This document shows, one piece after another, positions 61,456 through 61,542 of a stretch of 64,000 nt of DNA (position 1 is the stretch's first letter; every line of letters begins with the position of its first letter). Source of the stretch: Escherichia phage 4MG. The translations under genes were made by a program, and so were the position numbers. The notes under the pieces are model-generated. The model was not told where the DNA came from, ran no database searches, and worked only from the letters and a program-made list of their open reading frames with translations. The DNA lies in sequence record NC_022968.1, one strand, 5' to 3'.

Positions 61456-61542
61456 TGGTGGGTCGGGTGGGATTCGAACCCAACGATCCCTCGATTAAAA
61501 GTCGAGTGCCTTAGACATACGTCGCCGCTTGGCTACCAACCC
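61456..61542 (-). tRNA. tRNA-Lys (UUU) with enlarged D region
   Basis: 87 nt; perfect anticodon arm CTCGA-CTTTTAA-TCGAG; 7-bp acceptor; extra mini-hairpin GAC-GTAT-GTC in D-loop region. Confidence 0.45.

Follow-up and report, generated by a model that had tools for sequence, protein, structure and literature searches.

Can a phage tRNA carry a stem-loop inside its D-loop and remain a usable tRNA, and what might the phage gain from it? The question is raised by a gene in the 64,000-nucleotide stretch of Escherichia phage 4MG (NC_022968.1) that was analysed here as a whole and is called the window below. The original prediction, made from the letters alone, described a tRNA-Lys(UUU) with a mini-hairpin in the D-loop region, otherwise canonical arms and no second Lys tRNA beside it. 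Phage tRNAs are being reinterpreted as counter-defence against PrrC, PARIS, retron effectors and Schlafens, and to our knowledge every escape route reported to date consists of base substitutions.

Genomic context of the gene

The phage of the window is a GAP31-like Seunavirus of the Vequintavirinae, and 121 bases around the gene are 100% identical in Cronobacter phage GAP31, Escherichia phage LNA4 and Enterobacter phages EC152 and FENT2. The tRNA-Lys gene itself is 100% conserved in five isolate records from different hosts, which stand for four phages, since one phage is represented by a GenBank and a RefSeq copy. GenBank already lists it as tRNA-Lys, giving it a length of 87 nt in GAP31 and of 86 nt in PVP-SE1; its hairpin appears to be undescribed, and no published description of a natural D-loop hairpin in a tRNA was found in the openly accessible full-text literature.

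The gene belongs to a cluster of about 26 tRNA genes, which the GAP31 annotation also contains and which ends in a strong hairpin resembling an intrinsic terminator (Table 1). The remaining tRNAs of the cluster that ARAGORN calls have D-loops of 7-11 nt. Elsewhere in the cluster, C39 and a long variable arm are found in the tRNA-Asn of the phage and G39 in its tRNA-Thr; the E. coli Asn and Thr isoacceptors are cut, as is tRNA-Lys(UUU), by the nuclease AriB. A neighbouring ORF of 474 aa gave nothing usable in sequence searches of Pfam, NCBIfam and PDB.

The cloverleaf and its extra stem

Positions 61456-61542 of the minus strand form a complete 87-nt tRNA-Lys(UUU) gene with an encoded CCA, whose RNA reads, with its structural elements separated, GGGUUGG-UA-GCC-A-AGCGG-C-GAC-GUAU-GUC-U-A-A-GGC-A-CUCGA-CUUUUAA-UCGAG-GGAUC-G(U)UGGG-UUCGAAU-CCCAC-CCGACCC-A-CCA (Table 1). 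The tRNA covariance model RF00005 matches 61459-61542(-) with 50.5 bits (E 4e-10), above its curated gathering threshold of 29 bits, and all of the model positions 1-71 are matched. The alignment places 13 nt in the D-loop where the model has 2, and the insertion is confined to the D-loop. Because RF00005 fits only by way of this 13-nt insertion, the covariance search returned no shorter canonical fold, and together with the homologues described below it bears out the predicted tRNA-Lys(UUU) with a mini-hairpin in the D-loop. The stretch between position 9 and the anticodon stem, put at about 27 nt in the original prediction, counts 27 nt against a normal 17-18, and it holds the GAC-GUAU-GUC hairpin that had been pointed out. 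The segment from G19 to the 3' strand of the D-stem is 13-14 nt long instead of the usual 1-5, with the hairpin starting two nucleotides 3' of G19. The claim that the arms are canonical stood for the acceptor and anticodon arms and needs a small correction for the T-arm, which has a bulged nucleotide in its 5' strand. The Rfam alignment inserts this nucleotide as a U, and the alleles of Hena1 (G-U-[A]-GGG) and VLCpiM5a (G-A-[U]-GGG/CCC-U-C) support a bulge rather than a mismatch. No second Lys tRNA was found in the window by ARAGORN or Rfam scans, in agreement with the claim that this one is alone.

Table 1. Positions of the tRNA-Lys(UUU) elements and of the surrounding cluster in the window
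Feature	Position	Strand	Remarks
tRNA cluster, ~26 genes	63824 down to 60179	-	same cluster in GAP31 annotation
Acceptor stem, 5' strand GGGUUGG	61536..61542	-	pairs with 61460-61466; 7/7 pairs, one G-U
D-stem, 5' strand GCC	61531..61533	-	pairs with GGC 61508-61510; position 13-22 is A.A
G18 G19 of D-loop	61525..61526	-	T-loop partners at the elbow; conserved in homologues
Insertion C-GAC-GUAU-GUC-U	61513..61524	-	hairpin proper 61514-61523, between nucleotide 20 and A21
Anticodon arm CUCGA-CUUUUAA-UCGAG	61490..61506	-	5/5 pairs; anticodon UUU 61497-61499; U33 and A37 present
T-arm G(U)UGGG-UUCGAAU-CCCAC	61467..61484	-	one bulged nucleotide, 5' strand
Discriminator A73 and encoded CCA	61456..61459	-	read from sequence
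Intrinsic-terminator-like hairpin, strong	60115-60132	-	at cluster end, follows tRNA genes

The nucleotides that make tertiary contacts are intact (U8, A14, G18, G19, A21, G15/C48 and UUCGAAU), and the variable loop is the 5-nt GGAUC, whose C48 is able to pair with G15. Bacterial class II LysRS reads the anticodon, in which U35 is the major determinant, and the discriminator A73. As far as they can be read from the sequence, these identity elements are present, with the loop CUUUUAA and A73.

ARAGORN, proposed as a check on the fold, misses the gene in a default run, and a relaxed run offers no more than a poor tRNA-Glu(CUC) fold, whose D-stem has 2 bp. Intron options combined with lowered thresholds gave either nothing or a poor tRNA-Glu(CUC) fold. 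This alternative was rejected because the hairpin-less homologues are unambiguously Lys(UUU).

The hairpin in related phages

Across 13 homologues, the cloverleaf is 96.6% paired, and 14 pairs have changes on both sides. None of 500 shuffles reached the observed pairing, and sliding the 3' partners by 1-3 columns lowered it to 30-54%. Changes on both sides affect four of the seven acceptor pairs, all five pairs of the anticodon stem covary, and the D-stem is 100% paired; the second G of G18 G19 is invariant in the alignment, and the first is kept in at least 90%. On this comparative evidence, the gene of the window is a genuine elongator tRNA-Lys(UUU) with an intact cloverleaf, under purifying selection.

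The insert is kept at the same place in eight distinct alleles from isolates and metagenomes (Table 2), and the hairpin occurs in roughly 25 or more isolate records of Cronobacter, Salmonella, Escherichia, Enterobacter and Erwinia phages. Its stem is paired in all eight alleles. The outer pairs are constant, and the middle pair is A-U in six alleles, U-A in one (L018) and G-C in one (L022), which makes two compensatory double changes, both at the same single pair. The loop is free to vary and reads GUAU, UUAU or GCAA. Nearest-neighbour folding gives the hairpin a contribution of about -1.3 kcal/mol and a pair probability of 0.64. The same calculation gives the canonical D-stem a probability of 0.09 and favours instead a local GCC/GGC pairing in which G18 and G19 would be tied up; the z-score of the whole-tRNA fold is only -1.1. 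Taken alone, a 3-bp hairpin in this sequence is not beyond chance, and its support comes from the comparison of alleles.

Other relatives have no insert, namely KE23 and NINP13076 (Seunavirus), Hena1 (Henunavirus), VLCpiM5a and KPP-1 (Mydovirus), Av-05 and TH18. Their genes are ordinary 76-nt tRNA-Lys(UUU) genes, as in GCCGAGCGG-UC-AGGC. Since sister phages live without it, the insert is derived, lineage-specific and dispensable. Exact-pattern scans for the Vequintavirinae-type allele in IMG/VR and metagenomes returned only relatives of the same phages, and the scan of cellular genome contigs returned no match.

Similar tRNAs in viral and cellular sequences

IMG/VR was scanned with two degenerate patterns for tRNAs in which G18G19 is followed by a long stretch, and the matches were filtered for a cloverleaf with at least 6/7 acceptor pairs, at least 3 D-stem pairs, 5/5 anticodon-stem pairs and at least 4/5 T-stem pairs; all counts of this survey are among the matches listed. 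At least about 33 credible viral tRNAs, in about 24-25 clusters at 80% identity and unrelated in sequence to the tRNA of the window, have a stem-loop at the same position. Among the matches listed, the inserts mostly have GNRA or UUCG loops (examples in Table 2), and GUAU, the loop in the window tRNA, is seen again in L384 and L056. RF00005 assigns 65 bits with a 23-nt D-loop insertion to the Arg(UCU) tRNA with a 7-bp stem (L134) and prefers an alignment without a D-arm for one of the Lys tRNAs (L188, 33.9 bits); support from the model thus does not extend to all members of the class.

Table 2. Inserts in alleles of the tRNA-Lys gene and in unrelated viral tRNAs of the survey
Source	tRNA	Insert
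Window / GAP31	Lys allele	C-GAC-GUAU-GUC-U
SSE121	Lys allele	U-GAC-GUAU-GUC-G
Salmonella phage 41	Lys allele	U-GAC-UUAU-GUC-G
PVP-SE1, pEa_SNUABM_55	Lys allele	U-GAC-GCAA-GUC-G
pEp_SNUABM_01	Lys allele	A-GAC-GCAA-GUC-G
146,850-bp uncultured phage (L018/L020)	Lys allele	C-GUC-GUAU-GAC-U
Metagenome contig L022	Lys allele	U-GGC-GCAA-GCC-G
L119	survey, Lys	GAC-UUCG-GUC
L143	survey, Lys	GAUG-GCAA-CAUC
L161	survey, Lys	GGA-GAAA-UCC
L188	survey, Lys	GGC-GAAA-GCC
L230	survey, Lys	GUC-GAAA-GAC
L134	survey, Arg(UCU)	7-bp stem
L056	survey, Pro	UCC-GUAU-GGA
L218	survey, His	GUC-GCAA-GAC

Two matches with a tandem-duplicated 5' tRNA segment (L044, L172) and four with short unstructured inserts or spurious registers (L162, L235, L138, L182) were excluded. 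On the metagenomic hairpin tRNAs, ARAGORN either missed the gene or gave a wrong anticodon, and its alternatives (Phe, Ser, Ala and others) were rejected because their anticodon stems are mismatched and their arms odd. When six metagenomic hairpin Lys tRNAs were compared with isolate phages by BLAST, no close isolate appeared.

The length of the segment after G19 is bimodal when the fetched loci are read with a general cloverleaf scanner: about 1030 class-I viral tRNAs have 1-5 nt there, and the tRNAs with a hairpin have 13-26 nt. Between the modes lie two tRNAs with 6 nt and eight with 8-9 unstructured nt, among the latter the Met/Ile2(CAU) tRNA of the same cluster as the gene studied here. 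In 109 sampled viral Lys(UUU) genes the segment is 2-5 nt long. A Lys-specific scan of IMG/VR, with all of its matches counted, gave 33 contigs, of which many measure 100-400 kb, and 22 distinct inserts. GNRA loops are found in 15 of these 22, and one series, CC-G[C/U/G/A]AA-GG, is, as judged from its sequences, a signature of GNRA constraint. We infer that the tRNA of the window is a local example of a recurrent type of insertion, in which a stem-loop begins 1-3 nt after G18G19 and ends before A21 in an otherwise complete class-I cloverleaf.

Lys(UUU) accounts for 15 of the 33 hairpin tRNAs (45%) and for 14 of 218 normal tRNAs that share the sequence prefix and come from the same loci (6.4%), a difference with a Fisher p of 5.6e-8 among the matches listed; at the level of clusters the count is 8/24 (p = 3.7e-4, again among the matches listed). 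The other anticodons in the set, within the matches listed, include Glu(UUC) with 4 tRNAs, Arg(UCU) with 3, other Arg with 2, His with 2 and Pro with 2. Because the patterns fix TAGC, GG and the T-loop, and only listed matches were counted, this spectrum is a sample and not a census. The hairpin is present in about 3 of 120 viral Lys(UUU) genes that share the D-arm and were drawn without selection for the insert, which puts the frequency of this rare form at about 1-3% among sampled viral Lys(UUU) genes. Among 185,579 bacterial and archaeal species, each represented by one genome, the Lys pattern matched 15 times, and three of the matches are genuine hairpins, all on MAG contigs with tRNA clusters. 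The other 12 were rejected as 5' duplications of the attachment-site type or as N-masked stretches. With 33 contigs in IMG/VR against three MAG matches, the feature is therefore essentially confined to phages.

Discussion

We hold, with a confidence only a little beyond even, that the gene of the window encodes a working tRNA-Lys(UUU) from the minus-strand cluster, which retains a fifth arm in its D-loop, represents a recurrent phage type and probably evades nucleases. The tRNA would be transcribed along with the remaining minus-strand tRNA cluster, and the hairpin would stay unspliced and be kept in the mature molecule as a fifth arm, directed into the solvent from the core or elbow, close to the site of the class II long variable arm. 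LysRS, EF-Tu and the ribosome should still be able to use such a tRNA, because the arm is predicted to point into the solvent and because LysRS reads the anticodon and A73.

What the phage may gain is suggested by the nucleases that attack this tRNA. The PARIS effector AriB cuts E. coli tRNA-Lys(UUU) at C40|A41 and needs U39, A41 and the D-loop nucleotide U16, and its second protomer has been modelled on U16-U17 (PMC12409363). The tRNA-Lys of phage T5 evades AriB via changes at 39 and 41 and via U16C (PMC12409363, PMC11464382), and a bacterial Schlafen likewise cleaves tRNA-Lys(UUU) (PMC13056530). The tRNA of the window has C16 and G41, unlike the E. coli determinants U16 and A41, and keeps U39-C40, and most of the hairpin-less sister alleles have G39 or C39 instead of U39. 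Exceptions to this link between the hairpin and position 39 occur in both directions: in pEp01 the hairpin goes with C39, and the alleles of Av-05 and TH18 have U39 and lack the hairpin. By analogy with such cases, we infer that evasion of tRNA-Lys-directed nucleases is the most likely benefit. The altered surface of the D-loop and elbow would be bound poorly by host nucleases aimed at tRNA-Lys(UUU), and the phage would still have a Lys tRNA to use; AriB, which depends on D-loop contacts besides the 39-41 region, may serve as an example of such a nuclease.

Other explanations of the insert have to be weighed against this one. We expect the arm to be retained because the insert has no bulge-helix-bulge motif, is too small for a group I or group II intron and is found in phages of enterobacteria, in which we know of no tRNA splicing endonuclease. 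It consists simply of a 3-bp stem, a 4-nt loop and one unpaired nucleotide on either side, its 10-12 nt in the D-loop compare with hundreds for a group I or II ribozyme, which usually sits in the anticodon loop, Rfam scans matched no intron family, and its boundaries vary between families. A mini-intron of 10-12 nt, removed from the precursor to leave a canonical tRNA of 76-77 nt, is therefore very improbable in our view, although non-canonical introns of archaeal tRNAs, some in the D-loop, and a bacterial group II intron in a D-loop have been reported (PMC3241643, PMC13011429). Slimmer still is the chance of a decaying pseudogene: the rejection by default ARAGORN, the T-stem bulge and the weak predicted D-stem would fit decay, and against them stand the 100% conservation in five isolate records (four phages), the retention in roughly 25 or more and the covariation of all helices. 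The insert might also have arisen at the DNA level, as a scar or an immunity change in the target of a homing endonuclease. HNH endonuclease genes do abut the tRNA-Lys gene, directly upstream of it, in KE23, pEp01 and Hena1, and KE23 resembles Hena1 over its HNH gene and tRNA; downstream from the tRNA's 5' end its resemblance is to SSE121. However, pEp01 has both an HNH gene and the hairpin, PVP-SE1 and the window have only the hairpin, and VLCpiM5a has neither, so that no consistent association of HNH genes with the hairpin allele was found in the relatives compared; since the compensatory changes and the RNA-specific tetraloops favour selection on the RNA, we give this origin very little credence.

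A more serious competitor, unlikely in our estimate yet carrying real weight, is a neutral insertion that is tolerated at the solvent-exposed nucleotide 20 and whose pairing is selected only to spare the folding of the tRNA. Sister phages in the same genera manage with hairpin-less alleles, the loop sequence is unconstrained among relatives, the 3-bp stem is worth just about -1.3 kcal/mol, and among the viral tRNA-Lys(UUU) genes sampled only some 1-3% have the insert. A neutral scar, though, should not turn up again and again at one position in at least about 24 unrelated clusters; nor would it be expected to show a sevenfold excess of Lys(UUU) among the matches listed together with a near absence from cellular genomes, and the dominance of GNRA and UUCG loops points to selection at the RNA level. 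The hairpin tRNA could instead be a decoy, a tRNA-like RNA without a role in translation that acts as a sponge or inhibitor of a tRNA-Lys nuclease or as a handle for a phage protein. Several metagenomic phage contigs do have a hairpin Lys gene adjoining one or two canonical Lys(UUU) genes, an arrangement that would fit diversification against different nucleases just as well as a decoy, and the PARIS authors raised the possibility that some viral tRNAs inhibit AriB on overexpression (PMC12409363). We nevertheless consider a decoy improbable: here and in many other loci the hairpin gene is the sole Lys(UUU) gene of a near-complete tRNA set, and the elements that translation requires are preserved and covary (A73, CCA, the T-loop, and the anticodon loop with U33 and A37).

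A broader extension of the nuclease-evading reading is more tentative, and we rate it as possible but rather doubtful: the mini-hairpins of phage tRNAs may be a convergent, phage-specific fifth arm that sterically shields the most-attacked tRNAs and leaves decoding intact. The shielded tRNAs would be Lys-UUU above all, and also Glu-UUC, Arg and His, and the nucleases kept away would be those that dock on the D-loop, the elbow and the anticodon stem. If this is true, a covarying D-loop stem-loop would let phages evade immunity by structure, a route other than the point mutations of T5. The class-I tRNA shape, supposedly invariant, would then tolerate a fifth arm at 20/21, which could be useful for tRNA engineering. 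At a practical level, as ARAGORN misses or miscalls hairpin genes, inventories of phage tRNAs and analyses of codon usage that rely on such calls are biased.

Known systems resemble this tRNA in part. Grafted stem-loops have been tried in Spinach-tRNA fusions, in which only the variable-loop fusions were stable and a fusion of about 100 nt at 16/18 in the D-loop of E. coli tRNA-Tyr was undetectable (PMC5397188). The natural inserts are likewise extra stem-loops on a tRNA, but they are small and lie at 20/21, and the instability of the engineered 16/18 insertion therefore makes them noteworthy. The tRNA-Lys(UUU) of T5 is also a phage-encoded replacement of a nuclease-targeted host tRNA, and the tRNA of the window shares with it C16 and a changed position 41; the T5 tRNA escapes by point substitutions at normal size, whereas the tRNA described here has a structured insertion of 10 nt. 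Archaeal non-canonical introns similarly add nucleotides outside the anticodon loop and defeat standard tRNA finders, but they have a bulge-helix-bulge and are excised by an endonuclease, and the insert of the window has no such motif, nor is such an enzyme known in enterobacteria.

Class II tRNAs (Ser, Leu, Tyr) are similar in having a fifth stem-loop off the tRNA core that the ribosome and EF-Tu tolerate, and the D-arm of the window tRNA is itself class-II-like, with its 3-bp GCC/GGC stem and AAGCGG...AAGGC. Nucleotides 20a and 20b of class II tRNAs are packed against the base of the variable arm, and a hairpin at 20/21 should therefore occupy a similar space. In class II tRNAs, however, the arm comes from positions 44-48 and exceeds 10 nt, whereas here it comes from the D-loop of a Lys tRNA with a 5-nt variable loop. 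tRNA-Sec also has a D-arm larger than the canonical one, but with a single 6-bp D-stem and a 4-nt loop, an 8/5 or 9/4 arrangement of acceptor and T stems (13 bp in all), a long variable arm and the anticodon UCA. None of these is present in the window tRNA, which has a 7/5 arrangement, a 3-bp D-stem and the anticodon UUU, and the tRNA-Sec model RF01852 has no match on the gene. The tRNA of the window is thus neither class II, nor tRNA-Sec, nor intron-containing; it is a member of the tRNA family in all but the size of its D-loop.

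The upstream side of tRNA-Lys

The coordinates of the features discussed here are collected in the table. In three relatives, KE23 (L010), pEp_SNUABM_01 (L011) and Hena1 (L014), the 5' end of tRNA-Lys is overlapped or directly preceded by the end of an HNH endonuclease gene; in NINP13076 (L383) the place of the HNH gene is taken by an ORF with a hypothetical-protein annotation. KE23 matches Hena1 at 77% across the HNH gene and the tRNA, and matches SSE121 at 90% from the tRNA 5' end onward downstream. The HNH genes at this end, together with the split similarity of KE23 to Hena1 and SSE121, suggest that homing endonucleases have trafficked at the tRNA-Lys 5' end.

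Features of the 4MG window and of Salmonella phage locus L008
Feature	Coordinates	Strand	Remarks
ORF	58640-60064	-	474 aa; directly downstream of the tRNA cluster terminator
CAU-anticodon tRNA	60179-60257	-	Met in GAP31 annotation; Met or Ile2
tRNA-Leu(UAG)	60428-60504	-	5-nt variable loop
tRNA-Asn(GUU)	61197-61285	-	89 nt; class-II-like long variable arm UGGA-GCAA-UCCA
Spacer between tRNA-Lys and tRNA-Asn	61286-61455		170 nt
Bulged nucleotide, T-stem 5' strand of tRNA-Lys	61482-61483	-	n=1; G-U-[U]-GGG versus CCC-A-C
tRNA-like gene	62264-62333	-	6-nt anticodon loop
tRNA-Leu(UAA)	63289-63366	-	5-nt variable loop
Annotated tRNA-Lys of L008	288-373 (locus)		

Variants and look-alikes of tRNA-Lys

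Comparison of homologues showed that the T-stem bulge is common to the tRNA-Lys alleles of the window, KE23, Hena1 and VLCpiM5a, and that the PVP-SE1-type alleles are without it. The bulged nucleotide is A in Hena1, and VLCpiM5a keeps the bulge with A50-U64 in place of U50-A64. The annotated 'tRNA-Lys' of Salmonella phage vB_Sen_SG_WM_RUS_R7 (L008) is a chimera: as far as the T-loop it corresponds to tRNA-Lys with the hairpin, and it finishes with the 3' end of tRNA-Arg(ACG), CCCUGUACUUGCACCA. This arrangement suggests a deletion running from one T-loop to the other, in which Asn, Asp, His and Pro were lost and the acceptor stem was broken.

Among the genome_contigs matches (one genome per bacterial or archaeal species), several bacterial MAGs (L367, L371, L372, L377 and others) carry a direct repeat before tRNA-Lys(UUU) that copies the tRNA's own 5' 15-25 nt and that looks like a D-loop insertion in pattern scans. 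Such repeats are typical of attachment-site duplications from integrating elements.

Other members of the tRNA cluster

The two tRNA-Leu genes are 77-78 nt long and, with so short a variable loop, are therefore without the long variable arm that is the norm in bacterial Leu tRNAs. The CAU-anticodon tRNA, which was not called by ARAGORN and scored 45 bits with Rfam, has G18G19 followed by nine AU-rich unstructured nucleotides, AUAUAUAGA; it is the second enlarged D-loop of the cluster besides that of tRNA-Lys, and is without a hairpin. ARAGORN reported the tRNA-like gene as 'tRNA-???' with anticodon 'gt' (Rfam, 38 bits), and the GAP31 annotation gives it as pseudo tRNA-OTHER.

Near residues 38-55, the ORF beyond the terminator has the pattern GG-x12-DLD, which resembles the motif of Pol-beta-type nucleotidyltransferases. 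Its PHROG matches were only unknown-function families and a weak nucleotidyltransferase family (E 2.6e-4), the Pfam match was sub-threshold (E 0.07, 13 bits versus a 27-bit cut-off), and neither NCBIfam nor PDB sequences gave a match.

The spacer beside tRNA-Lys matched no tRNA or Rfam family and is far shorter in relatives (61 nt in PVP-SE1); the bases directly after the tRNA-Lys CCA end, where it starts, are common to the window and Mydovirus KPP-1. On its other side, tRNA-Asn(GUU) has 14 extra nucleotides at the variable arm in the Rfam alignment, and a long-variable-arm tRNA-Asn of 82-89 nt is retained in GAP31, PVP-SE1, VLCpiM5a, pEa55, Hena1 and KPP-1. Asn tRNAs usually belong to class I, and the PARIS defence system acts on E. 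coli tRNA-Asn(GUU) as a secondary target.
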